Shown here in pieces: positions 15,701 to 59,238 of a DNA stretch of 64,000 nt. Location of the stretch: assembly GCA_051294905.1 (NCBI GenBank), contig CM119372.1:29886001-29950000 (forward strand), in the 5' to 3' direction. The number at the start of each line of letters is the position of its first letter. Within the stretch, counting starts at the first letter, position 1. The DNA comes from Botryllus schlosseri. Its lineage: Eukaryota. The position numbers were made by a program, and so were the translations under genes. Below the pieces are notes generated by a model. It was not told where the DNA came from. It saw only the letters and a list, made by a program, of their open reading frames with translations, and did not search any database.

Positions 15701-15726
15701 TTATATGTTTAAGTATTAAATTGTCT

Positions 15727-21372: not shown

Positions 21373-21416
21373 AATAAATCATCAGTTGCACTGCAAGTTG
21401 AACATAAGTCGTACGG

Positions 21417-26729: not shown

Positions 26730-27262
26730 ATCGACTTTTACGTATATCTGTTTTGCGTGAACATAGCATATACCTATACATAGTCAATTTCAATAGCAGA
26801 ATTAGCGTGTTAAACATTGAATTCCCACCTTTAAAGTTGGTACGCGGTTATAGGACATTATAAAATGCACCATACCAAATCCCATCACACATTTCATGAT
26901 GGAACAACTTTAAAACTAACGCGGCTCTACATCGGCTTTTTGCGTACATCTGTTTGTGGGAGCGTATAGCACGTACCCATACATAGCCGACTTTAATAAC
27001 GGAATTACCATGCTTAACATTGAATACCAACTCTAAACTTGATACGTAGTTGTAGAGCCTTATGACAATGCACCATGCTAAATTTCATCACACACATCTA
27101 ATGATGGAACACCTTTGAAACTATCGCAGTCGAATACCGACTTTTAGGCATATCTGATTTTCGTGAACATAGCATATACCCATACATAGTCAATTTCAAT
27201 AACAGAATTAGCATGCTAAACATTAAATTCTCACCTTGAACGTTAGTACACAGTTGTAGGAC
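26730..27262 (-). repeat. inverted copy of the ~203-bp satellite
   Basis: Reverse complement of arrays 1 and 2 (AATGCACCATACCAAAT, AATGCACCATGCTAAATTTC). Confidence 0.85.
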
Positions 27263-28011
27263 AAGATGATATTCCTGTACTTGCACTTCGAAATGATTTA
27301 CTGACTGTTGGCCCCTCGCCAAAATTTCGGGCTTTAGGAGTCAAATTGTCTTTCTTATGGTAAATTAACGTAGGGAGAATTAATCAGAAAATTTTGTAGG
27401 GTATAGACCTACTCTATACTGTAGGCATTGATACATTTAACGCATGAGCCGTCGAGTTCGTACATGATAAAATTCCTGGTCAAGGAATATGCTTCGGATA
27501 TAATTTCATCCTTTTCTTCAGTGATCGAAGGTGCTGATACTCGTGATAATTCCATGGTTTGAGGAGAATAGCGAGTCAAAGCTTATTTCGAGATCTAAGC
27601 TACTTTGAAAATGAGGATCCTAGGATTTGCTTAATTTTCATCTATATCGTTCAATGCGTTTTCGCGTTCCAGAATGACTTATGTCAATGAAAAATAGCAA
27701 AAATGATCTCTCGACCATTGATCATGGTTTTGTTTTTAAAAGATGCCGCGATGTCGGTATAATATTTTATAAAACTCAAACTAGGACGAAATCATGAATG
27801 TGTAGGACTTATGATTAAGATATATTGTGCGCAGACAACTTTCTTACAAGAACTATGATATTCCTGTACTTGCACGAATTACAAATGCGGTATTGTAAAT
27901 TAGTATATAGCCTACTACACAAAATCCGGAGTCTAAAAGTTTTTATTACAGTTGAGAAAAAGTACTCGATACGCTATATTTGAATCTAAAAATGTTAATC
28001 CCCGTAAAACG

Positions 28012-28094
28012 TACTGGCTGTGGGGTTCGAAGCCACGTGAACACCTGTTCATTGAAACTCAAGTCCAATGCCTTTACCGCTCGCTCAACCCAGT
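28012..28094 (-). pseudogene. degenerate tRNA-Leu copy
   Basis: Aligns end to end with 20754-20836 but has mismatches in the acceptor, D, anticodon and T stems; a further fragment lies at ~28213-28237. Confidence 0.75.
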
Positions 28095-29759
28095 TCCATT
28101 GTAACGATATCTGAGAAATCTATTAAATTAGGGTAGAAATAACTATTTCCAAGTAACTTTCACGAAGTCTCGATACGCTATATTTAATCTAAAAATATTA
28201 ATCCTCATAAAACGTACTAGGTGTGTGCTTCGAAGCCTAGAATAATAAGCGGATCGTGATTGAAAATAGAAGAAGGATCACCGGATTAACGTTTATGGAA
28301 TACTCCGCAATGTAAAATTAGTATATACTGCACAAAATCCAGAGTGTAAGAGTCTTCAGTGCATCGGAATAGTGTAGTTTTCTATCTACTTTATAAAATT
28401 TATACGCTTTTTCTTGCTACGTTCCGGGATAAAATGTAATTTTTCGTGCTTTTTGTTTATTTTTAATAAAATTAGTATCCATTATACAAAAACGACGTGT
28501 AAAGGTAAAGTACGAATACAAGTACAAGTTGATAGCCTACTTGGTATAGTTTGTTAAACACCATTCGAGAGTAGAAATGCATCACGATATCGCGAAAACT
28601 GTTACGTTATAATTTTGCAGCTAGCGGACAGTTGACGAGGCACAATTATAGGTCTAATATTATAGAATTTGACAAATATTGACCTGAGATCATAGCATTG
28701 GAGCGGTACAGCCTAATCCGGGTTTTAGCCATACTCCTGATAACTAGGCTATTAATCATGTCATCACCAAAGTCAAATTAAATCAGCGTTAGATTTAGCT
28801 TCGACTATTGGAACAGATCAATGACAACTTGAATATAATGACTAATGTGCCATATAGCAATAGAAATGTCAAATCGCCGACGGATCCATTGGTGTTACAG
28901 CTGTGGGGCGTAGGCTGCCACTACGTTACTCGACGAATTTAATTGGCGACAATATCATGGATAATGAGACCCAAGATCACATAGGATGTAACTAACTATA
29001 CATCAAGATACATAATACCAATTTTCGCCATACCGACCTAGCTCGAAATCAAAACACGCAACGCAAGCTACAACCTCGTTTTCTGATGTAAATATCTAGC
29101 AGGCGTACGGGGTCAATCTTGACTTCATATGTTTACTTATCATAAAAGCCAAATCCGTGCGATTGCGGTGTTGCCTACACCTGTATAACTTGTTAATGGG
29201 GTAATATCGGTAGCAGGTATATTAACCCGTTTTGCACTCTGCTCATCAACCTACTTGAGTACATAATTTTAACTTTTTTCATTAACGCAAATCTGCGCGA
29301 ATAGCTGCATAAATCGCGAAAAGGTGCAACTCTAATTTTTAGGCTTTATTGCAAATACCGATGCTGAAATTGTACTTATGTCACATAGAACTCGGACACT
29401 ATCGGTGAAATTCACATAAAATCATGCGTAGTTGATCGCGCGAAATGTATGTATAATTTTAATATATAACAATAAAACCGCGAGTGTAAAATTGCTGTTC
29501 AATGGCTTTATCACGTTCTTACCAAGTACCTTAATAAGGATAGACAGCTCCAAGCAGTAATTGTTAGGTCATCATCACTAGCTTTCACCTCTTTACTCTT
29601 TTCAGCTGCAATCGTAACTTCGATCAATTCTGCAATGAAGTAAATAGTAGTTTAAGGTAATGTTTGTATAACCTTTACGAGTGCCATTGTCACACTCGAA
29701 AGAGATATTACCGTCTTTAAATCATCAGTTGCACTGCAAGTTGAACATAAGTCTTACGG

Positions 29760-30047
29760 ATGGCGCTAAAAATAACTGTGTATCGTTTTGTACGCGCACA
29801 TACTGCGGTGTTGCGATATAGTCCTGACACGATTGTCCAAGTTCTGAAAGCTGGAAAAGATACTCTCATATTATTTGATTGCGATTTCGATCCCACAGAA
29901 TCTCAAGTTATTCGTGGTCAATGGAATGGTACCTCTATTATAGATGTAGAGGGAAAAGAGATCTTCCGATTTGTAGGTATCGTTAATATTCAGCGCAAAT
30001 CGGGCTTCATAATTGTGCGGGGGATCCCATTGTTGAATTTGAATTGA
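29760..30047 (+). CDS. 95-aa orphan protein, family A copy 2
   Basis: Within a ~545-bp duplication (21375-21921 / 29718-30265); frame intact. Confidence 0.65.
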   Translation: MALKITVYRFVRAHTAVLRYSPDTIVQVLKAGKDTLILFDCDFDPTESQVIRGQWNGTSIIDVEGKEIFRFVGIVNIQRKSGFIIVRGIPLLNLN

Positions 30048-30921
30048 TCGGCGTGTCGCTGTACATGATGCACTATATCGAAAACATTATTGTTGGTTGA
30101 ATATTGTCGAATGATTGTCTATAATGTTAGTTGCATACAAGAATCTCGGAGATCTAAGCTCAAGATTTACGTACTCATGCTTGATTTGTTCCCATAGCCT
30201 CGACCTTGGGAATCGCTTGTATGCATCCAAAGAAAATAAGTCGTGAAATGCGGAAACTGTAGAAACCATTAGGAATCGCGTACCTGCCGCGAAAAGTTTG
30301 TTTAATTGTAACGCCGAGAATTGTGCGCCTACGGCTAGTCCGCTGGCGTTTAGCGCTGATTAAATTATCCTTATACTCGACATGCAAAGTAAATTTGCAG
30401 GTATTGGAATGAATTCAGTTGTAGTGTGCGTTCATATTAGGTCATGAAATGCGGAGACCTCGGCAATCGAAACCGCGATCTGTCTGCGCTCAAAATCGCA
30501 TTTTATATGAATTAATTAATTAGTGATGATGTGTAGAATTTTGATATATCATCATAGAACCCCGCGCCTAGTTCAACGTTGATGAGTGTTATCTGTGAAT
30601 ATCTGACAACTATAGTATTCTATTGACATCATAGTTTTCGAAATTTATGTGTAATCTGAATGTTATTTATATCCAAAAAAGTAAGTTATTATATTAATAT
30701 TTTCAAGTCGCAGCGCTTAAAATCGCATTTTATATTAATTAATTAGTGATGATACATTTCAAGTTATTCAATACATATTGCTAAATATACATAGAAAAAC
30801 CGGTATTGAAATTCACAAAACAATGAAATTTGCTCATAAATACACACGATGTGGCACTGGCAGGTGACTTGGCAATGGGCATCCTGTAGGCGTGACAATG
30901 GGTGTCATATAGGCGTGGCAA

Positions 30922-32202
30922 TTAAGGCGACAATGTAGGCGTGGCAATTAAGGCGACGTGGCCTTCTGGGATTGGCGGGGCACAAACGATACCCATAACA
31001 CTACTAACATCCACATCCGTATTTCCGGGACCGTGGCGTATTCGTCGCATCGAATTCTCCATCCATTTTAGCAGTGGCATGTCTCCAGGGTCCATCATAA
31101 GCTGAAGCATTTCTTTTTCTGATTGGATTTTAGCAGACACATTGAGCAATGGGGCCGAAACACCAGAATACTCGCGTGGCTGTTGCTGCTGTTGTCGCCT
31201 AGTCCTTCCCCAATACTCTTTTGGAGTGGAGGTAGCGCGAGGTGTATTAGGAGAACGAGAGATATCGGAAAGTTCCTCATCGAGAGATTCTTCCGCGGAA
31301 TCCTGAGAGCTCGCACCGCCCCGTAGGGACCTTATATTATCTCTTATTTCATTGGAAATACGTTTTAGTTGAGTATTGAAATCGACTTCGCTGTCTTCTG
31401 CATCAGATTGTTCCTCGCCTGGACTATGAAAGGTTACCCGTCGGGAAGCGCCGTCCGCATTTATACGGGATTCTGTTTCCGAATTGCGGCGTTCCTGCCA
31501 ACCTTGATATCCCCTATATTTACTCAAGGAACTTTTTGCAGGTTCCGTCCTTGTTCCCACCGTTGCTGGGTTTCCATCTTTTTGTTTGGCGCGTGCACCA
31601 CTGCCCACATGGAAGCATGGCGTCGTCCCTATTAGAGAGTCTGACAACGAGGTCGAATCAGAACGTGGTAGCTTAGGATAGACGGCCGTTACAGTATGAC
31701 AATCTAGACCCTTGCGAACCGTCATCGTTGGTCCTTGTTGTATGTTACCAGACGGCTGCTCAGTGAGAGGAACGTAAGCCGGAGGGTCATATTCTGGTGC
31801 AGTTGGAGCTACTGTCAAAACGGGAGATTGGATGCTATCTCGTGTAGCCTGTGCATGCGACTTTCCGAGCTCAAATTCTGACGTAAGGATGTCATTCAGC
31901 ACGTCGGTGGAGACCTTCCCGCTAACTTTTGTTGTGGCATCACAAACAGCTTTGAGGTCCGCTTGAGCTTTTCGAACCTCTTTCTTTGCCTTTTCTAAAC
32001 CTTTCATGGTTTCCGGTAGAGCTGTCCTTACTTCTTTCAATAGCTCTGTTTGTTCAGCCACATCCTTAGCAAGTTGTCTTTCTTGTCGCCGAACATCTTC
32101 ATGGCGTTTTTGTGTCGCTTTAAGCAAGGTAATCCCTTGTTTGAGTTCGTCTGTCGCTTCTGACGACTTTTTCCTTTTGAATGCTTTCAACATCCTTCGC
32201 AT
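30922..32202 (-). CDS. gag: Gag-like protein, 3'-truncated, with N-terminal coiled coil and PTAP/PPAY/YPKL motifs
   Basis: 426-aa ORF downstream of a PBS; APTAPEYDPPAY and VYPKLP; the end runs into short tandem repeats at ~30850-30960. Confidence 0.6.
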   Translation of the reverse strand: MRRMLKAFKRKKSSEATDELKQGITLLKATQKRHEDVRRQERQLAKDVAEQTELLKEVRTALPETMKGLEKAKKEVRKAQADLKAVCDATTKVSGKVSTDVLNDILTSEFELGKSHAQATRDSIQSPVLTVAPTAPEYDPPAYVPLTEQPSGNIQQGPTMTVRKGLDCHTVTAVYPKLPRSDSTSLSDSLIGTTPCFHVGSGARAKQKDGNPATVGTRTEPAKSSLSKYRGYQGWQERRNSETESRINADGASRRVTFHSPGEEQSDAEDSEVDFNTQLKRISNEIRDNIRSLRGGASSQDSAEESLDEELSDISRSPNTPRATSTPKEYWGRTRRQQQQQPREYSGVSAPLLNVSAKIQSEKEMLQLMMDPGDMPLLKWMENSMRRIRHGPGNTDVDVSSVMGIVCAPPIPEGHVALIATPTLSP

Positions 32203-35007: not shown

Positions 35008-35023
35008 TTACTTAGCATACATA
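35008..35023 (-). CDS. displaced 3' end (MYAK*) of the E2 gene
   Basis: ATG TAT GCT AAG TAA at 35022-35008 joins ...WTDM of the E2 once the insertion and one TSD are removed. Confidence 0.8.
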
Positions 35024-35057
35024 AGTAGTTAGTATGATCGGTCGCGATTCGTAATGG

Positions 35058-35331
35058 GGTTCTTATGGGCGGGGTGGTGACGCGCCTGAAAACCGGGGGT
35101 GGTGATGCGCCTTTTTTGCTATAGGCTGCGGCGGTGATGCGCCATGTGTTCTTATGGGTGCGGTCGTGATTCGCCTTTTTTGCTATAGGCGGTGGCGGTG
35201 ATTCGCCGTGAAAACTCGCGGTCGTGACTCGTCTTTTTTGCTATGGGCTGCGGCGGTGATGCGCCATGTATTCTTACGGGATCTGTGGTGACTCGCCATG
35301 TGTTCTTATGGGTGCGGTCGTGATTCGCACT
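35058..35331. repeat. GC-rich subterminal repeats (mirror 48251-48524)
   Basis: Recurrent GGTGATGCGCC, TTCTTATGGGTGCGGTCGTGATTCGC and TTTTTTGCTATAGGC units. Confidence 0.8.
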
Positions 35332-38300
35332 TTCAACCATCTCTCGCGTGGTGTTGAATAGTCACCAACAATAACCGCACAAACGGAAACGTGGCTTGTT
35401 GTGAGGATTAAGCAGTGCGACCTATATTTCGAATGACCTGCGCGCTGAATTGTTTCCGTGCAGTCGTGTGCTACTATCGATTATTACACTAGACCAGTCA
35501 GTGCGAAATAGTTTACCAAATCTAGGAATCAGTCGCATGGTGTTACTTTAGTAATTAGTTTACCACAGAGCCGGCGTAGACGGCGATTCGAATATCAACA
35601 ATAACCGCGTTCACATACTATCACTTCGAAAAAAGGTGTGAAATATTTGTAAAATCCTACGATCGCCCACAAGATAACACCTAAGACATAACCATTTTTG
35701 CGTCTTGTCATTACTTACATCCCAATCGCTACAGTTTAATATGTCGATGGTTTTTTACTATCAAGTAATAAGTAATGAATAACAGAACCGGTGCAGACTC
35801 TGATTCGAAAACCAACAATTTGGCACTTGCACGCGATCGCTATATGTTTTGACACTTCGGAAGAGTGGTTGACTTTAGTTGCGTGATACAAATCATGAGA
35901 ATATTCAATCAATGTACCAATTTGTCAACTTGAAATGAAACTCACTATATACAAATCAAGTTGATTCGTATTTGAATGTGTTGATTCGACACAACTCAAA
36001 TCCTTTGAGAAATCCTTTTAACACGATCTATCGAATCAAACGTAACCTGAATATTACTGACGCTAACATTCGGCCGCGTCGGATTATTCGCACATTCCGC
36101 GCTGCTGTTTTCACGTCTATAGAATCAATACCAACTATAACTCTACAAGAATCAAGAATCACAAGTATGTGCATTATACAGTTATTGTCTTTATCAACTT
36201 GAAATCAATCCCTTAACAAAAACACACATCTTATCACTTGTCAACTCTATCATGAAAATCCTCGAACCCGTATTATTAAGAATGTTATAGTACGGCGTCG
36301 GAAATCCACTCGCGAGATGTACTAAAGGTAAATCCAAATAATCCAGAATGAAATATTTGGACTTGACATTGTGTGAATTGAAATATGTTTGAAAAACATG
36401 ACTACCAACTTTCAACCCAGTCATAGTTAGAGATTATACGCATATTGATTTGAAACAAGTAATGAAACCTTACAACTCTATTCACAGTTTTCCGTTTGTC
36501 AAATAGAGTTTCAGTAAATAATTTCACTATGCTATCGCGATATTTAAATGTGTTACTACACACAATCAAGTCAATCAATGAAATCGCACCTGTTGTAAAT
36601 ATTTCACACTTGACAACCGCTTGCACATAACACGATCGAGTTGCAATGCGATGAGTTGAATCGGAATATTTCAACCTACTTTGTCAAATCGCGATTTGAA
36701 GTAGGATCGCCAGACAGACTGGGTAAACTTTCACTCCAATGCGTTTCAGATTAATTTATTCACACGATCACCATCTCGCTGTCTTCACACTTACACAATC
36801 GCGTACTGTTTCCACTCGCAACTTCGGTACGATATTTCAACTTGTCACAATAACTGATTATTCACATGTTGATTTGAAACAAAAGAAGCCTTGAACAAGT
36901 TATCTGGTTATTTTTTTTGTCGCAATTGAGTTAATGGAAATAGTATTACGCCTCGAAATTTTAACATCTTACCATACTCAAAAGAGTCAATCATGAAAAC
37001 CTTGTCAAGTAAATCCGTAAACCTTGTCAAGTAAATCCGTTTGTAACTCGACCAACCAACTATACAGTACCCGTACAGAAAGAAGACAAGATTATGCGAG
37101 TACATACAATCGCTACAATCTAAGCAAGTTCGGTTGTAGTCATATACCACCAAATCGTCTTTTTTGTTCAACTGTAAAAGTCGTTACTATTCTGTAAGAT
37201 AAAGTAATTACTACTCGGTATATTTTATAAACCAAAGTAAATACTACTCGGTGGGCGGTTTGAGATTAACATATTACATTTGAGTATACGAGATTTGAAT
37301 GTCTGACCAACGTAGTTGAGAATTCATTTCTTACAATCGAACGCAGGCGTTATATTGAAAATTTTCACGATGTAAACATTCTTATTAACACATTGATTTT
37401 GACATATGAGATTTTGTAATAGTCGATCATGACTTGATTATTAAATTATGACATTATTAGACCGGGGTTGTGTTGAAGGCTATTACGATACAAACAAACT
37501 TTACAGAAACATTGTTATTAGCATATCGATTTGTGGAACTAGATTAACATGTCAGAAATGTTTTGATTGGGAAGATTAAGCCGTGTTCGTAAAAACCACA
37601 CAGCGTATCGCGGATATCAGAAAATATTTTACAAATGTAATTGTCTCCACTAACCAAGACTAAAGATGAAAAAACAATTTCCTCTGTTAAACAATAACCG
37701 GTACAATAATTTATCATCGTAATCAGCAGTGAGAATTGCAACACTTTCGCACATTATCCGGTGTCAAGATATCACACTTGGTGAATTGACATACCGCCGC
37801 TTGATTAATGCTTAATCCGTTCGCACCATTTCACATACTTTGATCATTACAAAAGTAAATTGGAATATGTTTGCTAGATGCATTCAATTCAGTTAGAAAT
37901 GTCTGGTACACAACAATCGTAATATCAAAAAAGTACTTGCTACACTGTAATTCACTTAACGTGTTTTGCATTGTTGTTCATTTGTAGTATTGATTGTTTT
38001 TGAACCTCCAAATAATAATTCCCGACATGAAACCAAACCGCTGAAAGTCGTTACCATCACAACGAAACAATTTGTACGATGTTTGCCAAATGTATCCTAT
38101 AGTTAGGTGTACTAGAATCACTGGTCCAACACATACACCGACAATGCAATCGAAATTTTCCCCATTGTCATTCGTCAAAGTAAAGGTCGTCACAATACTC
38201 AACCCATAAAAGATCTTACTTGTATGTGATTGAATCGCAGGTAATTAACCCACTAAATCAAACCATAAGGAAATTTCACTCACTCATCGGATATGAAACA

Positions 38301-40122
38301 GCGTCACTTAATCGGCGTAGATCGTTTTACTAAATGCAAATCATACCTGACCAACAGAAAACAATTTTCACTCACCTTGTAATGAAACCAAGTGGTGGGC
38401 CTTCGTTCAATATTTTGTCTGTGTCAAATACTTTGTAATAAACACAATGGAGTGGTTGAGCTTTACATCATCAAGCTGTCATTAATAAATCAAGATTTCG
38501 GTAAACTTGTAAATGTATCGTTTAACTAACCGAGTTGTATACACAGTTTGATATTTTTGTCATTTAGTGATTGCTGAACATACCACTTCGAAATACTGCG
38601 TTGATCTCAATTCCCTTTGTCCTGATAATCGAAGTACTTTTGTTTTGAATTCATAACAATCGGCTTTTCTATGACATAATAAATTAGAAGAATTAGAAGA
38701 TTGGTTGCATATCACTAAAAATAAGATACCACACATATTATTACTGTTACTCCATTCATCGGTATTTTTTCCGTTGTCGATTTTCAAACGAGTAAAATTT
38801 ATTACTTGAGTTGCTCTGCTTACTATAATTAAATGTAAACTCACCCGTCTTTCAACAACAAACAATGTTAAAAAAGTACGCAATCAAACACAACAAGTTT
38901 TACGATACTAATAATTATCCCACATAACCCATTTCTTACCGAGGACATATGAAATATATTCATGTTACACGAAAAGATTCGCTCATGCTACAAACCTGTA
39001 CAATGATTGGTGGTGCTTTCAAACTGTTTCGATACCTCAAGAACTTTATTGTCTGAATGGTTGTTCATGTATCGTAATAATCAAGTAGTTCAACACAGAA
39101 CTAGTATTAACAGAAACACCAGAGTTGTTTACACAAAAGTTTGTCTGTGTACAGTATGCGAATACCATGTGTAAGTCCAGCACAATTGTGGTATCCATAC
39201 GAGTTTAGTTAACACAATTTACGACACCGAGGTCGCCTCATCTTTCGTAAGACAACAAACCAAGGCTTCAGGATATGTCCATGTCATAACAATAAATCAG
39301 CTACTCCAACAACAGAGTACATATGTTTTCTAGTTACGGTGCTTACATCTTACACACAAATCGACCTACTTTGCTAACGAAAAGCGCTGAGTCATCACAT
39401 GGTTATCCTCACAACAATACAACTAAAACATCCTGTCATACAAAATTGCCGTTATAGTTTGCACACCAACGATACATCGTACAAGTAGCAAGTCTCGAGA
39501 ATCCAGTTATTCAAAAAACGTGAAAGTGTTTCTACGCCAAGTCGGTATGTTGACGAAAGCATATATTGTAATATCATGATCGATTTACATTCGTTGGTCA
39601 CAAAATGTCACTACTCTAAATAATTATTTTTCACTCAAAGCCTACTTGTCGCCATTCGTTTCATCAAGCACGAGTTCAAGAAACCTGCTACGACATGAAT
39701 TGTTATTTTTATGTTGTGTAAATAGGTAATAATTAATTTTAGTAACACTAAATCAACATCATCGAGTTGCGCGAATAGATTTACATGTGGTCTTGTAGTT
39801 TTAATCGAAGTATACAGCACGGTCTAATGTAGAGTCATCTCTACTGTACAGCAACTCGGTAATCGAAATGTATTAAAATTTAAACAACGATCTTGTTTCG
39901 TCGCACCAAAAATATGTTTACCATCGCGATACTCTGCACAGGCCGTGTAAATCCTTTTCACACTCGTAATAGTATACCAACAGCTACCGGCGACAACGTT
40001 TAACAATACCAACGACACTAAACATACGATACCTACCCAAGTAAAATTACCATTTTCACCTGAAGGTCGGTCGTTACCCGAGTAGAAATACCATTGTCCT
40101 TTGGAGATTTATCGTTTACGCA

Positions 40123-40476
40123 GTGTAACAAACCCCTTTTCCTTTGGAAATCTATTTTTTCTCTGGGTAACAAACCTTTTTCACTTGGAAATATATTTTT
40201 TCTCTGGTTAACAAACCTTTTTCACTTGGAAATATATTTTTTCTCTTGGTAACAAACCTTTTTCACTTGGAAATCTATTTTTTTCCTGGGTAACAAACCT
40301 TTTTCACTTGGAAATATCTTTTTTCCTCGGGTAACAAACCTTTTTCGCTAGGAAACATATTTTTTTCCCTGGGTAACAAACCTTTTTCACTTGAAAATAT
40401 ATTTTTTCCTCGGGTAACAAACCTTTTTCACTTGGAAATATATTTTTTCCTCGGGTAACAAACCATTTTCACTTGG
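40123..40476. repeat. ~41-bp minisatellite, about 9 copies (mirror 43107-43460)
   Basis: GGGTAACAAACCTTTTTCACTTGGAAATATATTTTTTCCTC units. Confidence 0.9.
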
Positions 40477-40991
40477 CCGTCCGTCGTTTACCTGAGTAAA
40501 AATATCATTTTCCTTTGGGGATCTGGCGTTTACCCAGTGTAACAATACATTTTCTCTTGGTCATCTAGCTTTTCCTAGAGTAACAAAACCATTTTCATTT
40601 TGAAATCTGACAAACACACCAGACAATTTGATATTTTTGTATATTGTTACAACGGATAGCGACAAAATATACACCAACAACAACTCCAATACATTTGTGT
40701 AATCGCATATTCACTTGTGCTGATGCAACCCATCAAAATCATTGGTTACTCACATGTAATGTACTGTACATCGATGTGAATGTTTTGGAAAATTGGACAA
40801 TAGACTTCGATAGTTCTGTGATGTCCGGGTTCGTGCTTTGGGTTTTCCAGAGTCAAAATGTCTGAATAAAACACCTCCTCGACGATGGTTGGTATGTGGA
40901 TAACGGTGTTCGGAAAACGGTTCACCCATCGCGATAACAATTCCAGATCGAGTTTTCCCCCTGCATGTTTACTATATTGTGTCTTTATTGG

Positions 40992-41444
40992 TCAATGTAT
41001 GTCTCGACATTCAGTTTGAAATCGGAAACCCTGATAAAGTATGTAACCGGATCCGGATATCAACTCTGAATCGATAAACCAATGAACAATATTCAAAGTA
41101 AACATGGTACACCCTGTGTTTCCACGAAAAAAATACCATCCAGACATACGTCGCGCTTGTTTGCCCACACCAGTATACACGCAAATGGAGGTGTGTGACA
41201 TTGCATGCAATGTGTTGGTATACAAACATCGATCCACAGACATTATCATAGCCGGTAGTTTTGATGTAGATCGAATGTCATCACACCCGATAACAATGTC
41301 ATACCAATAAGCCACATTGCAATGACTCTGAGTCAATCTGAAGCAGGACATACAGACACACAAACAGGGAGCCGTAACATGGGGTATTCGCACGACAGTG
41401 AAAGTGAACTGTACAGTACATACCAATATTGTGATCACAGTCAA
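40992..41444 (-). CDS. hypothetical Cys-rich protein crossing the arm/spacer junction
   Basis: 150-aa ORF whose ATG overlaps the upstream ORF stop (ATGA); only a 5'-truncated mirror exists at 42249-42591. Confidence 0.4.
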   Translation of the reverse strand: MTVITILVCTVQFTFTVVRIPHVTAPCLCVCMSCFRLTQSHCNVAYWYDIVIGCDDIRSTSKLPAMIMSVDRCLYTNTLHAMSHTSICVYTGVGKQARRMSGWYFFRGNTGCTMFTLNIVHWFIDSELISGSGYILYQGFRFQTECRDIH

Positions 41445-41716
41445 ATATGCGAACCGTGCACAATCATATACCCTGGTTTTTGTTGGATATGTACGAAACC
41501 AATAAATCGATACATTTGTTTTCCTTTGACGTCAACAATACAAGCACCATTCCAATGCATCGCTCGAATGTGAGGTTCGTCGGGTGTAAAATCCATGTCA
41601 AATAACACCAAAGTGTGCCTTCCGTGTTTTATTATTTCCACCGACGCTTCTTGTCTGTGTCGTAACACTATGGTGCGTGGAGTTGAAAAACGGTAAATTG
41701 TAAAACGGATTGACAT
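41441..41716 (-). CDS. orphan family A protein, copy 3, in the palindrome spacer
   Basis: Gapless alignment with 21417-21704, about 41/88 identical by hand count (YRF, VLR, LFDxDF, WNG, DVxGK, RFxG, IQxKxG). Confidence 0.7.
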   Translation of the reverse strand: MSIRFTIYRFSTPRTIVLRHRQEASVEIIKHGRHTLVLFDMDFTPDEPHIRAMHWNGACIVDVKGKQMYRFIGFVHIQQKPGYMIVHGSHI

Positions 41717-42248
41717 GACCAACAGAATCGACGTCAATAGTCTTGTGACGATGTCGTTTCAAAATGTTACCGATCTCTTGTGGTGATGACCGTTTTTTGT
41801 AATGTCACCGGATGAACTGGACCCTTACGATGATGTGTTTTATGATTGCGTGTGAAATCACGAGGTAGTGTTCTATTGTGGTGTACGATTGCAGTCTTCA
41901 TTCCACAGAAACACACCTTATTGGATCACAATATCAGTCCGAGATTTTCAGAATCACTGTTCGCGATATTTATCTGGAGTCGTTATGTGGGAGTAGCGAC
42001 ATCCATACATCGTGACTGAAAGACTGATCGCAATCATTTCGAGCGCCGTACTTCGATGGTTCACCTTGGTCAAACGCTGTACAACAGAAAACTTCGGTCT
42101 CGACAACACGACTGATATTGACCGATGTATCCAATTGGTCTGGGTGATCTGTCCGGAGATAGGGTCATGACTATTTTGTAATGTTACAACGCGATAAAAC
42201 CATCGAGTAAATCAGTGAACGGTGTCGAAATATCGATGTAACAGCGCG

Positions 42249-45200
42249 GACTCAGAGTCATTGCAATGTGGCTTATTGGTATGACATTGTTATCGGGTGT
42301 GATGACATTCGATCTACATCAAAACTACCGGCTATGATAATGTCTGTGGATCGATGTTTGTATACCAACACATTGCATGCAATGTCACACACCTCCATTT
42401 GCGTGTATACTGGTGTGGGCAAACAAGCGCGACGTATGTCTGGATGGTATTTTTTTCGTGGAAACACAGGGTGTACCATGTTTACTTTGAATATTGTTCA
42501 TTGGTTTATCGATTCAGAGTTGATATCCGGATCCGGTTACATACTTTATCAGGGTTTCCGATTTCAAACTGAATGTCGAGACATACATTGACCAATAAAG
42601 ACACAATATAGTAAACATGCAGGGGGAAAACTCGATCTGGAATTGTTATCGCGATGGGTGAACCGTTTTCCGAACACCGTTATCCACATACCAACCATCG
42701 TCGAGGAGGTGTTTTATTCAGACATTTTGACTCTGGAAAACCCAAAGCACGAACCCGGACATCACAGAACTATCGAAGTCTATTGTCCAATTTTCCAAAA
42801 CATTCACATCGATGTACAGTACATTACATGTGAGTAACCAATGATTTTGATGGGTTGCATCAGCACAAGTGAATATGCGATTACACAAATGTATTGGAGT
42901 TGTTGTTGGTGTATATTTTGTCGCTATCCGTTGTAACAATATACAAAAATATCAAATTGTCTGGTGTGTTTGTCAGATTTCAAAATGAAAATGGTTTTGT
43001 TACTCTAGGAAAAGCTAGATGACCAAGAGAAAATGTATTGTTACACTGGGTAAACGCCAGATCCCCAAAGGAAAATGATATTTTTACTCAGGTAAACGAC
43101 GGACGGCCAAGTGAAAATGGTTTGTTACCCGAGGAAAAAATATATTTCCAAGTGAAAAAGGTTTGTTACCCGAGGAAAAAATATATTTTCAAGTGAAAAA
43201 GGTTTGTTACCCAGGGAAAAAAATATGTTTCCTAGCGAAAAAGGTTTGTTACCCGAGGAAAAAAGATATTTCCAAGTGAAAAAGGTTTGTTACCCAGGAA
43301 AAAAATAGATTTCCAAGTGAAAAAGGTTTGTTACCAAGAGAAAAAATATATTTCCAAGTGAAAAAGGTTTGTTAACCAGAGAAAAAATATATTTCCAAGT
43401 GAAAAAGGTTTGTTACCCAGAGAAAAAATAGATTTCCAAAGGAAAAGGGGTTTGTTACACTGCGTAAACGATAAATCTCCAAAGGACAATGGTATTTCTA
43501 CTCGGGTAACGACCGACCTTCAGGTGAAAATGGTAATTTTACTTGGGTAGGTATCGTATGTTTAGTGTCGTTGGTATTGTTAAACGTTGTCGCCGGTAGC
43601 TGTTGGTATACTATTACGAGTGTGAAAAGGATTTACACGGCCTGTGCAGAGTATCGCGATGGTAAACATATTTTTGGTGCGACGAAACAAGATCGTTGTT
43701 TAAATTTTAATACATTTCGATTACCGAGTTGCTGTACAGTAGAGATGACTCTACATTAGACCGTGCTGTATACTTCGATTAAAACTACAAGACCACATGT
43801 AAATCTATTCGCGCAACTCGATGATGTTGATTTAGTGTTACTAAAATTAATTATTACCTATTTACACAACATAAAAATAACAATTCATGTCGTAGCAGGT
43901 TTCTTGAACTCGTGCTTGATGAAACGAATGGCGACAAGTAGGCTTTGAGTGAAAAATAATTATTTAGAGTAGTGACATTTTGTGACCAACGAATGTAAAT
44001 CGATCATGATATTACAATATATGCTTTCGTCAACATACCGACTTGGCGTAGAAACACTTTCACGTTTTTTGAATAACTGGATTCTCGAGACTTGCTACTT
44101 GTACGATGTATCGTTGGTGTGCAAACTATAACGGCAATTTTGTATGATAGGATGTTTTAGTTGTATTGTTGTGAGGATAACCATGTGATGACTTAGCGCT
44201 TTTCGTTAGCAAAGTAGGTCGATTTGTGTGTAAGATGTAAGCACCGTAACTAGAAAACATATGTACTCTGTTGTTGGAGTAGCTGATTTATTGTTATGAC
44301 ATGGACATATCCTGAAGCCTTGGTTTGTTGTCTTACGAAAGATGAGGCGACCTCGGTGTCGTAAATTGTGTTAACTAAACTCGTATGGATACCACAATTG
44401 TGCTGGACTTACACATGGTATTCGCATACTGTACACAGACAAACTTTTGTGTAAACAACTCTGGTGTTTCTGTTAATACTAGTTCTGTGTTGAACTACTT
44501 GATTATTACGATACATGAACAACCATTCAGACAATAAAGTTCTTGAGGTATCGAAACAGTTTGAAAGCACCACCAATCATTGTACAGGTTTGTAGCATGA
44601 GCGAATCTTTTCGTGTAACATGAATATATTTCATATGTCCTCGGTAAGAAATGGGTTATGTGGGATAATTATTAGTATCGTAAAACTTGTTGTGTTTGAT
44701 TGCGTACTTTTTTAACATTGTTTGTTGTTGAAAGACGGGTGAGTTTACATTTAATTATAGTAAGCAGAGCAACTCAAGTAATAAATTTTACTCGTTTGAA
44801 AATCGACAACGGAAAAAATACCGATGAATGGAGTAACAGTAATAATATGTGTGGTATCTTATTTTTAGTGATATGCAACCAATCTTCTAATTCTTCTAAT
44901 TTATTATGTCATAGAAAAGCCGATTGTTATGAATTCAAAACAAAAGTACTTCGATTATCAGGACAAAGGGAATTGAGATCAACGCAGTATTTCGAAGTGG
45001 TATGTTCAGCAATCACTAAATGACAAAAATATCAAACTGTGTATACAACTCGGTTAGTTAAACGATACATTTACAAGTTTACCGAAATCTTGATTTATTA
45101 ATGACAGCTTGATGATGTAAAGCTCAACCACTCCATTGTGTTTATTACAAAGTATTTGACACAGACAAAATATTGAACGAAGGCCCACCACTTGGTTTCA

Positions 45201-48200
45201 TTACAAGGTGAGTGAAAATTGTTTTCTGTTGGTCAGGTATGATTTGCATTTAGTAAAACGATCTACGCCGATTAAGTGACGCTGTTTCATATCCGATGAG
45301 TGAGTGAAATTTCCTTATGGTTTGATTTAGTGGGTTAATTACCTGCGATTCAATCACATACAAGTAAGATCTTTTATGGGTTGAGTATTGTGACGACCTT
45401 TACTTTGACGAATGACAATGGGGAAAATTTCGATTGCATTGTCGGTGTATGTGTTGGACCAGTGATTCTAGTACACCTAACTATAGGATACATTTGGCAA
45501 ACATCGTACAAATTGTTTCGTTGTGATGGTAACGACTTTCAGCGGTTTGGTTTCATGTCGGGAATTATTATTTGGAGGTTCAAAAACAATCAATACTACA
45601 AATGAACAACAATGCAAAACACGTTAAGTGAATTACAGTGTAGCAAGTACTTTTTTGATATTACGATTGTTGTGTACCAGACATTTCTAACTGAATTGAA
45701 TGCATCTAGCAAACATATTCCAATTTACTTTTGTAATGATCAAAGTATGTGAAATGGTGCGAACGGATTAAGCATTAATCAAGCGGCGGTATGTCAATTC
45801 ACCAAGTGTGATATCTTGACACCGGATAATGTGCGAAAGTGTTGCAATTCTCACTGCTGATTACGATGATAAATTATTGTACCGGTTATTGTTTAACAGA
45901 GGAAATTGTTTTTTCATCTTTAGTCTTGGTTAGTGGAGACAATTACATTTGTAAAATATTTTCTGATATCCGCGATACGCTGTGTGGTTTTTACGAACAC
46001 GGCTTAATCTTCCCAATCAAAACATTTCTGACATGTTAATCTAGTTCCACAAATCGATATGCTAATAACAATGTTTCTGTAAAGTTTGTTTGTATCGTAA
46101 TAGCCTTCAACACAACCCCGGTCTAATAATGTCATAATTTAATAATCAAGTCATGATCGACTATTACAAAATCTCATATGTCAAAATCAATGTGTTAATA
46201 AGAATGTTTACATCGTGAAAATTTTCAATATAACGCCTGCGTTCGATTGTAAGAAATGAATTCTCAACTACGTTGGTCAGACATTCAAATCTCGTATACT
46301 CAAATGTAATATGTTAATCTCAAACCGCCCACCGAGTAGTATTTACTTTGGTTTATAAAATATACCGAGTAGTAATTACTTTATCTTACAGAATAGTAAC
46401 GACTTTTACAGTTGAACAAAAAAGACGATTTGGTGGTATATGACTACAACCGAACTTGCTTAGATTGTAGCGATTGTATGTACTCGCATAATCTTGTCTT
46501 CTTTCTGTACGGGTACTGTATAGTTGGTTGGTCGAGTTACAAACGGATTTACTTGACAAGGTTTACGGATTTACTTGACAAGGTTTTCATGATTGACTCT
46601 TTTGAGTATGGTAAGATGTTAAAATTTCGAGGCGTAATACTATTTCCATTAACTCAATTGCGACAAAAAAATAACCAGATAACTTGTTCAAGGCTTCTTT
46701 TGTTTCAAATCAACATGTGAATAATCAGTTATTGTGACAAGTTGAAATATCGTACCGAAGTTGCGAGTGGAAACAGTACGCGATTGTGTAAGTGTGAAGA
46801 CAGCGAGATGGTGATCGTGTGAATAAATTAATCTGAAACGCATTGGAGTGAAAGTTTACCCAGTCTGTCTGGCGATCCTACTTCAAATCGCGATTTGACA
46901 AAGTAGGTTGAAATATTCCGATTCAACTCATCGCATTGCAACTCGATCGTGTTATGTGCAAGCGGTTGTCAAGTGTGAAATATTTACAACAGGTGCGATT
47001 TCATTGATTGACTTGATTGTGTGTAGTAACACATTTAAATATCGCGATAGCATAGTGAAATTATTTACTGAAACTCTATTTGACAAACGGAAAACTGTGA
47101 ATAGAGTTGTAAGGTTTCATTACTTGTTTCAAATCAATATGCGTATAATCTCTAACTATGACTGGGTTGAAAGTTGGTAGTCATGTTTTTCAAACATATT
47201 TCAATTCACACAATGTCAAGTCCAAATATTTCATTCTGGATTATTTGGATTTACCTTTAGTACATCTCGCGAGTGGATTTCCGACGCCGTACTATAACAT
47301 TCTTAATAATACGGGTTCGAGGATTTTCATGATAGAGTTGACAAGTGATAAGATGTGTGTTTTTGTTAAGGGATTGATTTCAAGTTGATAAAGACAATAA
47401 CTGTATAATGCACATACTTGTGATTCTTGATTCTTGTAGAGTTATAGTTGGTATTGATTCTATAGACGTGAAAACAGCAGCGCGGAATGTGCGAATAATC
47501 CGACGCGGCCGAATGTTAGCGTCAGTAATATTCAGGTTACGTTTGATTCGATAGATCGTGTTAAAAGGATTTCTCAAAGGATTTGAGTTGTGTCGAATCA
47601 ACACATTCAAATACGAATCAACTTGATTTGTATATAGTGAGTTTCATTTCAAGTTGACAAATTGGTACATTGATTGAATATTCTCATGATTTGTATCACG
47701 CAACTAAAGTCAACCACTCTTCCGAAGTGTCAAAACATATAGCGATCGCGTGCAAGTGCCAAATTGTTGGTTTTCGAATCAGAGTCTGCACCGGTTCTGT
47801 TATTCATTACTTATTACTTGATAGTAAAAAACCATCGACATATTAAACTGTAGCGATTGGGATGTAAGTAATGACAAGACGCAAAAATGGTTATGTCTTA
47901 GGTGTTATCTTGTGGGCGATCGTAGGATTTTACAAATATTTCACACCTTTTTTCGAAGTGATAGTATGTGAACGCGGTTATTGTTGATATTCGAATCGCC
48001 GTCTACGCCGGCTCTGTGGTAAACTAATTACTAAAGTAACACCATGCGACTGATTCCTAGATTTGGTAAACTATTTCGCACTGACTGGTCTAGTGTAATA
48101 ATCGATAGTAGCACACGACTGCACGGAAACAATTCAGCGCGCAGGTCATTCGAAATATAGGTCGCACTGCTTAATCCTCACAACAAGCCACGTTTCCGTT

Positions 48201-48558
48201 TGTGCGGTTATTGTTGGTGACTATTCAACACCACGCGAGAGATGGTTGAAAGTGCGAATCACGACCGCACCCATAAGAACACATGGCGAGTCACCACAGA
48301 TCCCGTAAGAATACATGGCGCATCACCGCCGCAGCCCATAGCAAAAAAGACGAGTCACGACCGCGAGTTTTCACGGCGAATCACCGCCACCGCCTATAGC
48401 AAAAAAGGCGAATCACGACCGCACCCATAAGAACACATGGCGCATCACCGCCGCAGCCTATAGCAAAAAAGGCGCATCACCACCCCCGGTTTTCAGGCGC
48501 GTCACCACCCCGCCCATAAGAACCCCATTACGAATCGCGACCGATCATACTAACTACT
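42249..48558 (-). repeat. right arm of giant inverted repeat
   Basis: Reverse complement of 35024-41334; I saw only two substitutions (~44148, ~44194) and one homopolymer indel (~46670). Confidence 0.97.
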
Positions 48559-49004
48559 TACATATCAGTCCAGTTTCGTGCCGTATTCTGATAACAATCA
48601 TAATCATCCTGGTACAGTCTGGCGCTCTCAACATACATTGGATCTTTTGGGTTCGGGGAAGCCAATAATGACGAAATTGAGACCAATACTTTCCCCAACG
48701 TTAAAGCAGGCGACCATTCCTCTGCAAGAATGTCAATGCATATGGTACCCTTACGGCTTATATTTGGATGAAAAATTCTGGTCTCGAATTTAATCTTCGG
48801 GGGCTTGAATGGATATTCCGTTGGAAATTCGATTCTCAGATTGAAGATCCCTTTTTCATATGGTGTTTTTGATGGTCCGCGCAATATTGCTTGCCAAACA
48901 TAGATATCCGACTCGTCCAATGGCCCCGCTTGTAAAATTACGGGATTTGTTTGAATTTCTTGAACAATCTTCCGCCGCTCCACATGTAATCTATGTTTTG
49001 CCAT
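48559..49004 (-). CDS. UBE2D: ubiquitin-conjugating enzyme E2 (Ubc4/5, UBE2D-like), intronless, last codons displaced by insertion
   Basis: WQAILRGPSKTPYEKG, FPTEYPFKPPK, FHPNI..G.ICIDIL (catalytic Cys), WSPALT; likely ATG at 49004. Confidence 0.93.
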
Positions 49005-49061
49005 TCGTTGTAGATTTATACTATCCAATAAGATTTACACACATAAAAAGAAAGGGAAACA

Positions 49062-51351: not shown

Positions 51352-51356
51352 GAAAC

Positions 51357-51613
51357 TGTTATGTTCTTGATCTTGTTTGAACAATAACTCAATACGACGA
51401 GGTTGCAATATGAAATCAGTATATATTAACAGCAGAATAACTTTAGGCAGCGACACGATCCAGAGTGCAGTTAAATGAAAAGACCACGAGACAACAGAAC
51501 ACAGGATATAAATACAAGCACGACACACGAGGAAATAATGATTGGCTGTAATTACTAATCCTATAGAAAGAAAGAGTGGTACGACACTAAAACGTAAATG
51601 CACGAACATAACA
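51357..51613 (-). repeat. 3' LTR
   Basis: Two mismatches seen versus 59239-59495. Confidence 0.95.
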
Positions 51614-51647
51614 GTCCTCCCCTATAAGTTGAGAGGGTTGCCCACAT

Positions 51648-54600
51648 TTACTTAGGTCTGTAGAAATCGGTTTGCTTTCTGTTCCTAAGAGGATAACGTC
51701 TACCCGACGTACGGGCAGGACTAGCTGCAGGACCTTGTGCCCTGTTCCTAACCAATGGTTGCTCAGCTTGTGACTGTTGAGGCTGAGCAACTTCCTGTGT
51801 GGCTGTATTATTGCCAGCTGAAATCAAGCGTGGTTGGAGTTGGTTTTTGTGCCTCCTCCAAAACCCATGATCTGTTTTTATGATGTACACAACACGACCC
51901 AGTATTTCCGTCACCACGCCAGCAACCCACTTAGGTCCGCTTCGGTAACTGCGAGCGTAAACCGAGGAACCAATCTCAAAATGAGTGACTGATTGTCCAG
52001 GCGTAACGGGTTTCGATTTGTCGAAGGGCGAGCACAAACTCAACAAATTGCGCGGCTGTCGACCATGTAAAATCTCGACAGGCGTTTTCCAGTCTATGCC
52101 CGGGTGCGGTGCACATCGGTACGTAGCGAGAAGTGTTTGGAGCGCGAAGTTGAGATCTTTTCCCCCGTCGCAATTTTTTATTAATCCAGCTTTTAAAGTC
52201 TGGACGAAACGCTCCGCTTCCCCGTTCGAGGCAGGGTGAAAAGACGGTGATACCATATGGCTGATTGCCAAATTAGAGCAAAACGTATCGAATTCATTCG
52301 ATGTGAATTGCGGCCCGCCATCCGTGACAATTGTTACGGGTAAGCCTTCAATAGAGAAGACATCCCGCAAAGCGTTGACTACACACAAGGTTGTGGTAGA
52401 TCCGACATTCATTACTTTAACGAAAGGATATTTCGAATGCGCATCGACGATGACAAGAAACATTTTATTGTTTATTGGACCTGCGAAGTCCAAGTGAATT
52501 CGATCAAAGCTTTCGGAAGTTTTAGGCCATTCGCGATACTGACGATCAGGCGCTTTCATTACTTTGCGGCAAGCGTCGCAACTCTTCACGAGATTTTCAA
52601 TGTCGCGATTAATGGAAGGCCATGCGATGTAACGTCGAGCCATCTGCTTCATTTTCGCGATACCCCAATGTCCTTCGTGCAACAATGATAAGACTCGCGA
52701 GCGAAGTGACTGCGGAATTACTACGCGCTGAACACCATCAATATTGAGCATGACTATGTCTTCGTGCAGAGAAAGCGAATGTTTGCGAGTCGAAAACCAA
52801 GAAAAATCATCAATGTGCGTCTTTGGATTCCAATTACCATGAGTGACAGATAATTTTACTAGTTTCATGGTTTGGTCCTTCAGCGTCGCGTCGCGAATTT
52901 CATTGCGAGTTAACGGTAAGCCATCGAATGCCATATTAATAGCGTGAACGATCTCCGCGTTTTCACGAATTTCCAGTTCGTCAAACTCAGGGTCTGGACC
53001 CTTCGGTAGGCGAGATAAACCGTCGGCGTTTCCGTGCTGATTAGTCGGTTTATAGCGAATATCGTATTGGTAAGCCATGAGCGTTAGTGCCCATCGCTGT
53101 AAGCGTTGCGCTGTAATCACGGGAATTTTCGTGTCTGGCGAGAAAATAGCTAAAAGCGGTTTGTGGTCCGTTACGAGCGTAAATTTTCTACCATACAAGA
53201 ATTGACGAAATTTAGTGACTCCGTAAATGATTGACAGAGCTTCCTTCTCGATTTGAGAGTAGGATTTTTGCGAATCTGAAAGGGTTTTCGATGCGTGCGC
53301 GATCGGTCTCTCTTCGCCATTGTGCTCGATTGAGAGGACAGCGCCGATTCCGAATTGAGAAGCATCAGTTGACAAAATGAGCTGCTTGTTTACATCATAA
53401 TGAGCTAACTGCGTAGCGTCGATTACGTCGTTTTTGAGAATGCGAAAAGCTGCGTCACAGTCCGTATTCCAAATGAATTTCGCGTCTTTTTGAAGAAAAC
53501 GGTACAAGGCAGCGGCTTTATTCGTAAAATTAGGAATAAACGCGCGATAATAATTGACTTTGCCCAGGAATGCCTGTAGCTGGCGAACATCCTGAGGTTT
53601 AGGCAACTGTTTGATTGCGTCAACGGATTTCTGAGACGGGCGTTTGCCGTCCTTGTCGATTATATGACCAAGGTACTCGATACTACTTTTGAAAAATTCA
53701 CATTTAGCGAAGTTGACGGTGAAACCGTATTCGGTGAGGCGCTCAAAGAGTAGCGATAAGTTGCGAAAATGATCGCGTTCATCAATGCCAGTAACGATTA
53801 TGTCATCGATAAAACTAGCAACACCGGGTAAGCCGGCGATCATGGCATCAATACAGCGTTGAAAATTTGCGGGACTAGATGCGACTCCGAAACACATGCG
53901 TCGATAACGGAATAGACCGAATTGCGTGTTGATGACACACAAATTCTTCGCATCATCATCTAATTCTAGCTGAAAATAAGCATCGGCAAGATCAATTTTC
54001 GTGAAAATACAACCACCCTGTAACTTGTGAAGAATTTCATCCAAGGAGGGCAGGGGATGTTGATCTATCTGAATTTGTTGATTCAATGCTTTGAAGTCAC
54101 CACAAATGCGTATTGATCCATTTGATTTAGTGACGGCAACAATTGGTGCTGCCCAATCACTGTAATTGATTGGTTCGAGGATACCTTGATTGACTAATCT
54201 ATCCAATTCGGTTTGAACAGCGATTTGCCTTGCGAAAGGCAAAGGGCGTGGCTTGTTGAATACGGGCTTGGCATTAGGTTTCAAGTGAATTGTCACCTTT
54301 GTCTTAGTGCATCGTCCAAATACATTAGAGAAAACAGTGCATCGTCCAAATACATTAGAGAAAACGGAGGGAAATTTGGACTGAAAAGATACCAATTTGT
54401 CGTTCGAATCAGAAATGTCAATAGTATTACATGATTGCGATTTGACCATCTGCGAGGAAATTGCATCCAAAGCAGAAGTTCCCTTAGTGGTCATGGAGAA
54501 AGCATCGCTCCAATCGAGACCAAAAATGTTTTGCCCACGGTGTTCGTCGAGAACCACCAATTTTAAGCCAACTCGAACTTCAGAACCCACCTGCACGCTT

Positions 54601-54896
54601 ACAGTGCAAATACCTTTCACTTTCAGTGGCTTGTCGCCATACGCTACGAAAGAGCAATGGTATGCTGAGAGTTTCGGAGAGCCCAAAGTTTTGTACCCAG
54701 TCAATCCCACCATGGCGGAGGGTGCACCAGTGTCCCACTGTGTCGGCAACGGAAGGCCGTTGATGCTGGAGTTGATCCAGAGCTGGTTTCCTACGTGTCG
54801 ATATAGTTGATCGATGTCGAAGGAGAGGAGTGGCACTGAGCAGAAATTGACTGATGTGACCTGTTGCGTGATACTAGGTTTGGTAGACATGCACAC
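51648..54896 (-). CDS. pol: Gypsy pol: protease, RT, RNase H, integrase
   Basis: WDTGA; IDLADAY, FIDD; TDAS; HEGH..CDAC; HLDF, VTDGGPQF, NGEAERFV. Confidence 0.96.
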   Translation of the reverse strand: MCMSTKPSITQQVTSVNFCSVPLLSFDIDQLYRHVGNQLWINSSINGLPLPTQWDTGAPSAMVGLTGYKTLGSPKLSAYHCSFVAYGDKPLKVKGICTVSVQVGSEVRVGLKLVVLDEHRGQNIFGLDWSDAFSMTTKGTSALDAISSQMVKSQSCNTIDISDSNDKLVSFQSKFPSVFSNVFGRCTVFSNVFGRCTKTKVTIHLKPNAKPVFNKPRPLPFARQIAVQTELDRLVNQGILEPINYSDWAAPIVAVTKSNGSIRICGDFKALNQQIQIDQHPLPSLDEILHKLQGGCIFTKIDLADAYFQLELDDDAKNLCVINTQFGLFRYRRMCFGVASSPANFQRCIDAMIAGLPGVASFIDDIIVTGIDERDHFRNLSLLFERLTEYGFTVNFAKCEFFKSSIEYLGHIIDKDGKRPSQKSVDAIKQLPKPQDVRQLQAFLGKVNYYRAFIPNFTNKAAALYRFLQKDAKFIWNTDCDAAFRILKNDVIDATQLAHYDVNKQLILSTDASQFGIGAVLSIEHNGEERPIAHASKTLSDSQKSYSQIEKEALSIIYGVTKFRQFLYGRKFTLVTDHKPLLAIFSPDTKIPVITAQRLQRWALTLMAYQYDIRYKPTNQHGNADGLSRLPKGPDPEFDELEIRENAEIVHAINMAFDGLPLTRNEIRDATLKDQTMKLVKLSVTHGNWNPKTHIDDFSWFSTRKHSLSLHEDIVMLNIDGVQRVVIPQSLRSRVLSLLHEGHWGIAKMKQMARRYIAWPSINRDIENLVKSCDACRKVMKAPDRQYREWPKTSESFDRIHLDFAGPINNKMFLVIVDAHSKYPFVKVMNVGSTTTLCVVNALRDVFSIEGLPVTIVTDGGPQFTSNEFDTFCSNLAISHMVSPSFHPASNGEAERFVQTLKAGLIKNCDGGKDLNFALQTLLATYRCAPHPGIDWKTPVEILHGRQPRNLLSLCSPFDKSKPVTPGQSVTHFEIGSSVYARSYRSGPKWVAGVVTEILGRVVYIIKTDHGFWRRHKNQLQPRLISAGNNTATQEVAQPQQSQAEQPLVRNRAQGPAASPARTSGRRYPLRNRKQTDFYRPK

Positions 54897-54994
54897 AGGT
54901 TTGATATGACCTTTGCGACCACATTTCTGACATACTGCATGTCGATATTGACAGTCTTTTCTCTGGTGATCGATGAAACAGCGGCTGCAGGATT

Positions 54995-55245
54995 TCAGTC
55001 TTTCCTGGAAGTTGCCTTGGTTGGATTTGGAAGGTTTTTTCCCTTCTGATAACTTCCCGTCATTTTGTTGACGACGGAAGTGTCTTTACCGCTACTCTCG
55101 CCTTGGATAACTCTATCAGTTTCCAGCGTTCTCACGTATGTTGCGGCTACTTTGAGAACGTCGTCGAGGGATGGATTGGTTTGTGTTAGACAATGCCGTC
55201 TCACATCCGCGTGCTGCGTTTCTTTAATGATGAGATCGCGCATTA
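54995..55245 (-). pseudogene. gag: Gypsy gag, 3' part
   Basis: Continues VDELM|RDLII across the LINE; the CCHC knuckles follow in the pol frame after a frameshift near 55030. Confidence 0.8.
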
Positions 55246-55417
55246 TGAAAACCTAACTAAACTGAGAAGAGATCTCTTCTTCCAAGCACGAAAGCTCCAG
55301 AAGAGCATGGATTACCAGTACATATGGACCGCTGATGGAAATATTTTCATCAAGAAGGATAACGACTCAAACAGGATACATATTCGATCCTCGAAAGACC
55401 TATCCAAGATCATATAG
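55246..55417 (+). pseudogene. LINE ORF1 C-terminal fragment
   Basis: ENLTKLRRDLF...YQYIWTADGNIFIKK, typical of CR1-type ORF1 C-termini. Confidence 0.7.
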
Positions 55418-55468
55418 GCTAGCCTAAGATGGGAACATGCCTCATGATAACAAATCAAATTTGATGCA

Positions 55469-59237: not shown

Positions 59238-59238
59238 T

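Follow-up and report, generated by a model that had tools for sequence, protein, structure and literature searches.

The window, the whole 64,000-nucleotide stretch of Botryllus schlosseri DNA analysed here, contains a 13,535-bp palindromic element at 35024-48558, which begins with AGTAGT and finishes with ACTACT. The hexamer TACATA flanks the element as a direct repeat at 35018-35023 and 48559-48564; its reverse complement is TATGTA, and hence this target-site duplication lies outside the palindrome. The boundaries given in the preliminary description (35018-48564) are real, but that span includes both duplications. A left arm of 6311 bp (35024-41334, forward strand), AT-rich and without a conserved long reading frame, and a right arm of 6310 bp (42249-48558, reverse strand), which terminates in ACTACT, surround a unique spacer of 914 bp (41335-42248), the loop of the predicted fold-back form. 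The terminal inverted repeat (TIR) of 6311 bp accounts for 93% of the element. When the window was compared with itself by BLAST, 35022-41334 aligned with 48560-42249 over 6313 columns at 99.952% identity, with three differences: one gap of 1 bp (36911) and two substitutions (39389/44194 and 39435/44148). Both the AGTAGT...ACTACT termini with their exact duplication and the near-identical arms of about 6.3 kb around a 914-bp spacer, as first described, were therefore confirmed.

The left terminus (35024-35514, forward strand) carries the (AGT)2 end and subterminal 32/122-bp repeats. Over these 491 bp it shares 96% identity with one end of the intact Maverick C13:18340424-18356688, which is among several candidate helpers described below. 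Further inwards lie a 41-bp tandem array at 40125-40608 (forward strand), whose length varies among copies, and a 28-bp core at 41045-41072, with its mirror copy at 42511-42538. The arm ends in a junction segment with two short self-complementary motifs (41313-41334, forward strand), beyond which the spacer encodes a 91-aa protein on the reverse strand (41441-41716). Searching the helper core proteins against the element gave no match, with pPolB, integrase, capsid proteins, ATPase and protease all absent, and most of the arm DNA has no match to helper DNA. Pfam was blank for the reading frames of the element, except for a RING match below the cut-off, and no arm frame was conserved with a convincing coding signal. 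Thus, the earlier statement that no core Maverick gene is present stands, but the conserved spacer gene had been overlooked.

The target site and its host element

The element interrupts an intronless gene for an E2 ubiquitin-conjugating enzyme (48558-49034, reverse strand; Pfam UQ_con, E=1.5e-46), whose frame reads ...WTDM and then meets a stop at the element edge, so that only three codons were lost through the insertion. In all 11 paralogous E2 loci that were fetched, both flanks were contiguous around a single TACATA, and the C-terminus was WTDMYAK* in 10 and MYAQ* in the other. These loci are natural empty sites. Among the contigs from other samples, none reached over the final 100 bp of the left flank of the insertion. 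The E2 gene is present in 26 dispersed intronless copies at an identity of at least 86%, among 114 matches. As it is one of 26 near-identical dispersed copies and lies inside a mobile element, the insertion is not a knockout of a host gene; one mobile element has landed in another. The proposal of a clean insertion in an E2 gene is supported by the contiguous empty paralogues and their WTDMYAK* ends, but the E2 is the cargo of a mobile element and not an ordinary host gene.

The E2-bearing host element occupies 12206-17358 and 31005-64000 of the window, continues to about C2:29,979,300, and is gene-rich and multi-copy. Along with the intronless E2 it contains an IAP gene (three BIR domains and a RING), an LRR protein, a weak Bcl-2-like frame, two large frames without a Pfam family and paralogous small frames. 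Its gag-pol-like frames include a zinc knuckle, RT, RNase H and a Tpt1-like domain. Two other copies, at C3:21.17-21.20 Mb and C8:9.42-9.47 Mb, are collinear with it at about 70-92%; they have two ISXO2/Merlin-like transposase frames, and the window has one. This host element is possibly a giant retroelement or a virus-like element.

Other insertions have accumulated in the host element. A second one, of 13.6 kb (about 17359-31005), is missing from the C3 and C8 copies, shows a 6-bp duplication, ends on the right like a Maverick, and is a rearranged relative of a second palindrome family (98.7% over 1.7 kb). Gypsy-like LTR elements at 51354-59496 and from 62599 onward split the IAP gene, with LTRs that are 98.9% identical, and the first of them holds a LINE-like element.

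The 91-aa gene and the conserved core

The spacer frame, of 91-93 aa, is open in 29 of 30 copies. A protein 64% identical to it is encoded in the second palindrome family of the same genome, and the genes of the two families align without gaps from start to stop. Against eight copies, at a dS of about 0.7, dN/dS was 0.31-0.36 for this gene and 0.58-2.1 for the other five frames. The gene is thus real and under purifying selection, with a dN/dS of about 0.33. Within the family, pN/pS does not discriminate the gene (0.53) from the other frames (0.27-1.64).

When a profile of 12 satellite variants was searched against 5200 stop-free pieces, a 101-aa frame was the only one to stand out (E=7e-8 and 9e-7, the next score being 0.58; pairwise identity 34%); it comes from a third intact Maverick family. 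This homologue lies between the protease and the right TIR of that family, and no homologue was found in the other two helper families. The only intact-Maverick homologue belongs to a family whose ends are not shared by the element. The 91-aa protein has no Pfam match, sequence searches retrieved its own kin only, PDB sequences gave nothing better than E=0.17, and matches in the atlas were under 0.9 or absent. The structural model, built from 14 sequences, is predicted to be all-beta (pLDDT 76) and has no fold match at E<=0.001 in the viral or PDB libraries. A small-heat-shock fold was considered and rejected, as the rows were weak and the rmsd was about 10-15 A.

The core, about 370 bp from the 91-aa gene, was found in 23 of the 25 loci tested and in none of the intact Mavericks tested. 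Among 10 chosen sequences that represent both palindrome families, its 28 columns do not vary, and a 26-mer taken from it occurs 980 times. A structured RNA in the core was rejected for now, with no Rfam match and covariation in 1 of 31 predicted pairs. Our guess is that the 91-aa protein targets either the conserved core or the helper and thereby benefits the satellite. A small gene that is under selection across satellite families and has an intact-Maverick homologue is a candidate for satellite-helper interaction in this group of viruses.

RNA records over 5.2 kb of this multi-copy family amounted to 205 of 12.9 million and 422 of 22.2 million, with a depth of about 2 over the 91-aa gene, a coverage too low to use. 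None of the sequencing runs holding this stretch is on record as RNA.

Related palindromes and intact Mavericks in the genome

The terminal 377 bp of the element matched paired ends across the genome, on many chromosomes (40 of 2162 candidates scored), and all 40 scored candidates for the spacer region matched at an identity of at least 90%. The arm/spacer junction falls at the identical nucleotide in 29 of the 30 loci examined, and a 25-mer spanning it has 350 exact occurrences, compared with 0 for the control. Thirty further copies, which were picked by spacer similarity and are not a random sample, were fetched. An exact, private 6-bp duplication was present in each of the 24 with both ends readable; 21 of these measure 13.1-14.7 kb, and the other three (15.2-16.0 kb) have one-arm insertions or unlike arms. 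Assuming full length, about 340 copies of 13.5 kb in 495 Mb mean that palindromes of this junction class make up ~1% of the genome, and gene-based surveys of Mavericks miss such elements.

The fold point is not the same in every related copy. A subfamily has arms that reach 25 bp further into the loop and end at a 5-bp microhomology, and copies with the same kind of ends and other fold sites have loops of about 560-675, 1905 and 3061 bp. Six of these other-fold copies had both ends in view, five of them of 13.2-14.0 kb and one of 15.4 kb. Two copies of about 21 kb (C2:28391982-28413504 and C13:4144261-4165136) contain internal duplications that are 99.8-100% identical and could be replication by-products or misassemblies. 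In helpers and satellites, the sequence after AGTAGT (the first 30-500 bp) consists of shuffled short modules, different in almost every copy and nearly always alike at both ends of one copy.

A search with the terminal sequence for autonomous partners, as first proposed, recovered intact Mavericks with matching ends as well as other insertions. Five regions fetched from this search are 15-17 kb long and have short TIRs, about 650 bp in length. Among them, the region that was scanned completely (C13:18340424-18356688) encodes a pPolB (E=6.5e-8), an rve integrase with a chromodomain, a P-loop ATPase below the Pfam cut-off and a protease recognised by its H/D/Q/C motif only, for which Pfam and PDB searches were blank. 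It also encodes a 423-aa protein whose predicted fold (pLDDT 93.6) matches double jelly-roll capsids (E=1e-16), namely those of iridovirus, PBCV-1, Sputnik and mavirus. At least 85 copies of this capsid gene at 95% identity or more, plus 11 at 79%, were found among 97 scored of 306 candidates. The same intact Maverick itself sits inside the arm of a satellite-family copy. A third intact Maverick family is also present in the genome.

Some satellite copies have pieces of the helper left or right end in both arms. In two of the four helper TIR pairs compared, the differences cluster in the inner part. Helpers have an OB-fold-like frame (weak PF01336) beside the left TIR, and one satellite carries this frame in both arms at 98%. 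Shared helper termini, hundreds of copies and independent 6-bp duplications bear out the earlier view of a non-autonomous Maverick derivative. Because the ends are shared with intact Mavericks and the duplication has the same size, we infer that the element is mobilised in trans by helper enzymes.

The second palindrome family is about 15-20 kb long (for example C6:9987515-10003282), with loops of about 33-90 or 480-850 bp. Each of its arms contains the 91-aa gene, which can point either way, and in some copies each arm also contains a Bcl-2 gene (PF00452, E=2e-21). All 14 end pairs examined in this family are long-armed, and no helper was found for it, its ends matching none of the three helper families. 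The small gene of the third Maverick family occurs in many inverted pairs 11-28 kb apart, often broken (for example C13:19811135/19824312), which suggests a third palindrome family.

Origin of the palindromes and comparison with known systems

In our view the element is a palindromic satellite that has Maverick/Polinton ends and probably relies on proteins of intact Mavericks in the genome for its copying and insertion, a mechanism read here from integrated copies. In this model, the protein-primed polymerase of the helper would start at one element end and displace a strand, which would fold back on itself to form a stem of 6.3 kb closed by a loop of 0.9 kb; the duplex end of this structure would again serve as an origin. 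Satellites and helpers would co-replicate and recombine, one arm would then usually be recopied from the other, and the helper integrase would insert the product. The fold point would remain constant because homology ends there, and would shift only through template switching at a microhomology; the subfamily with arms 25 bp longer shows how such a shift can occur.

The arms carry the evidence on this point. In 19 of the 22 copies aligned, the two arms of a copy differ by 0-56 mismatches over about 6.4 kb (median 6). In contrast, the outer arm differs between copies by a median of 15-33% per segment, distances which alignment noise inflates, and segment distances between copies barely correlate (terminus vs spacer, rho -0.35). 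The arm in the window is a mosaic: its nearest relative over 36224-39523 is one copy, mostly at 97-100%, over 39524-40123 it is other copies, and at the terminus of the arm it is a helper. The same mosaic is carried by both arms of the element, which argues for recombination followed by arm-to-arm copying.

Such copying could also have taken place after insertion, by gene conversion between the chromosomal arms, as in the palindromes of Y chromosomes, whose arms are kept alike in this way. Private changes are about twofold more frequent in the spacer (0.72%) than in the adjacent arm (0.38%), as expected if conversion favours the old state, and ectopic conversion, with several hundred copies in the chromosomes, could also produce mosaic arms. 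However, one-arm insertions persist uncorrected, and in three of the 22 copies the arms have stayed unlike over kilobases, despite matching ends and a target duplication. Moreover, the satellite target duplications were exact in all 38 read, an outcome with a probability of 0.04 at 0.7% divergence and 0.0001 at 2%, so the copies look as young as their arms indicate. The uncorrected insertions and the exact duplications together favour copying before or at insertion over long-term chromosomal conversion, which we regard as an unlikely explanation. The three copies with unlike arms also indicate that recopying is not obligatory. No deamination skew was found in the spacer, and thus it bears no positive trace of a single-stranded loop.

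A foldback-type transposon (FB, Galileo and TU-like elements) moved by cut-and-paste by an unrelated transposase would likewise have a unique loop between very long inverted arms that contain internal tandem repeats. This explanation is already largely refuted and we consider it highly improbable, since the ends and the 6-bp duplications are those of co-resident Mavericks, the terminal modules are common to both, and the only gene of the element is related to a Maverick gene. Although near-perfect palindromes can arise in long-read libraries, and the two fetched copies with 99.8-100% identical internal duplications could be misassembled, a fold-back assembly or library artefact can practically be dismissed given the direct duplication with natural empty sites, the dozens of copies that share the junction but each have another duplication, the three differences between the arms, and the presence of the stretch in runs from 10 studies; the earlier argument from the target-site duplication has thus held up.

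Returning to the helper-dependent satellite, its length deserves attention. Non-autonomous transposons usually shrink. The satellites have remained at 13-14.7 kb, in a genome whose helpers measure 15-17 kb; elements with several different fold points, from two or more families of which one has Bcl-2 cargo, fall at 13-17 kb. With alignment-free anchors, the lengths of the outer arm and of the tandem-array segment are inversely related (rho -0.60), and the total arm length, for 32 of 36 arms, has an SD of 274 compared with 371 for shuffled segments (P=0.0009). This compensation weakens to r -0.32 to -0.39 (P 0.04-0.11) after tree-based contrasts. A capsid-size limit may therefore act on satellite length. 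For intact Mavericks, Barreat and Katzourakis 2021 (PMC8097293) argue along the same lines.

More tentatively, and with somewhat less confidence than an even chance would call for, we hypothesize that the palindromes are satellite viruses: snap-back genomes that would have duplicated themselves to fit the helper capsid, with a Maverick-derived protein and a candidate binding core acting on the helper, and that are archived in the germ line. If this were true, satellite size would be a fossil record of a packaged virion stage in animal Mavericks, whose replication and possible virion formation are inferred from gene content (PMC4028283, PMC8097293). On the replication model above, the hundreds of young, symmetric and recombinant copies preserve products of Maverick replication. 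Concrete predictions follow: hairpins measuring about 7 kb, palindromes measuring about 13.5 kb, and particles that contain satellite DNA.

Among known systems, the element resembles autonomous Mavericks/Polintons in its (AGT)2//(ACT)2 ends and 6-bp duplication, as described in PMC8097293 and PMC4028283 (Krupovic et al. 2014), and in its length, which is within the 12.7-24.6 kb given for intact vertebrate elements in PMC8097293. The end motif listed in PMC8097293 is (AGT)2//(ACT)2 or (AG)3//(CT)3. In contrast, its TIRs of 6311 bp far exceed the 46-1447 bp that PMC8097293 gives for intact Mavericks. None of autonomous Mavericks' eight core genes is present in the element.

Non-autonomous Polintons, according to what Kapitonov and Jurka reportedly wrote in 2006, are deletion derivatives with short TIRs, for which a racket-shaped replication intermediate was predicted. 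The element shares with them Polinton ends, the apparent dependence on a helper, and a predicted intermediate in which the two ends form a stem with a single-stranded loop. It is unlike them in that the stem is almost the whole element, the length is near that of the helper, and a gene is maintained by selection.

A close analogy is offered by the adenovirus inverted-repeat mini-genomes and panhandle repair of Steinwaerder, Stecher and Lieber: in this virus with protein-primed replication, inverted repeats reportedly give rise to genomes that lack genes and have a central cassette between two copies of one end, and that a helper replicates and packages. These are laboratory vectors that do not integrate, whereas the element family is natural, inherited and probably mobilised by an integrase. 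Hairpin and palindromic derivatives of protein-capped linear plasmids (yeast pGKL and those of Streptomyces) are also related in principle, as fold-back at a short repeat turns a protein-primed end into a long palindrome; unlike the element, they are episomes and have neither an integrase nor germ-line copies nor the capsid of a helper. As a general class, viral satellites and snap-back defective genomes combine the cis signals of the helper with a small accessory gene and outnumber the helper. Like viral satellites, the element has helper ends and a small gene of its own, and it is known here from integrated copies alone.

Searches of the open-access literature, outside subscription journals and Repbase, turned up no account of Maverick derivatives that are palindromic over their whole length. 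The element is a real variation on the theme of Maverick derivatives: a palindromic satellite that probably depends on helpers and has a single gene to itself.
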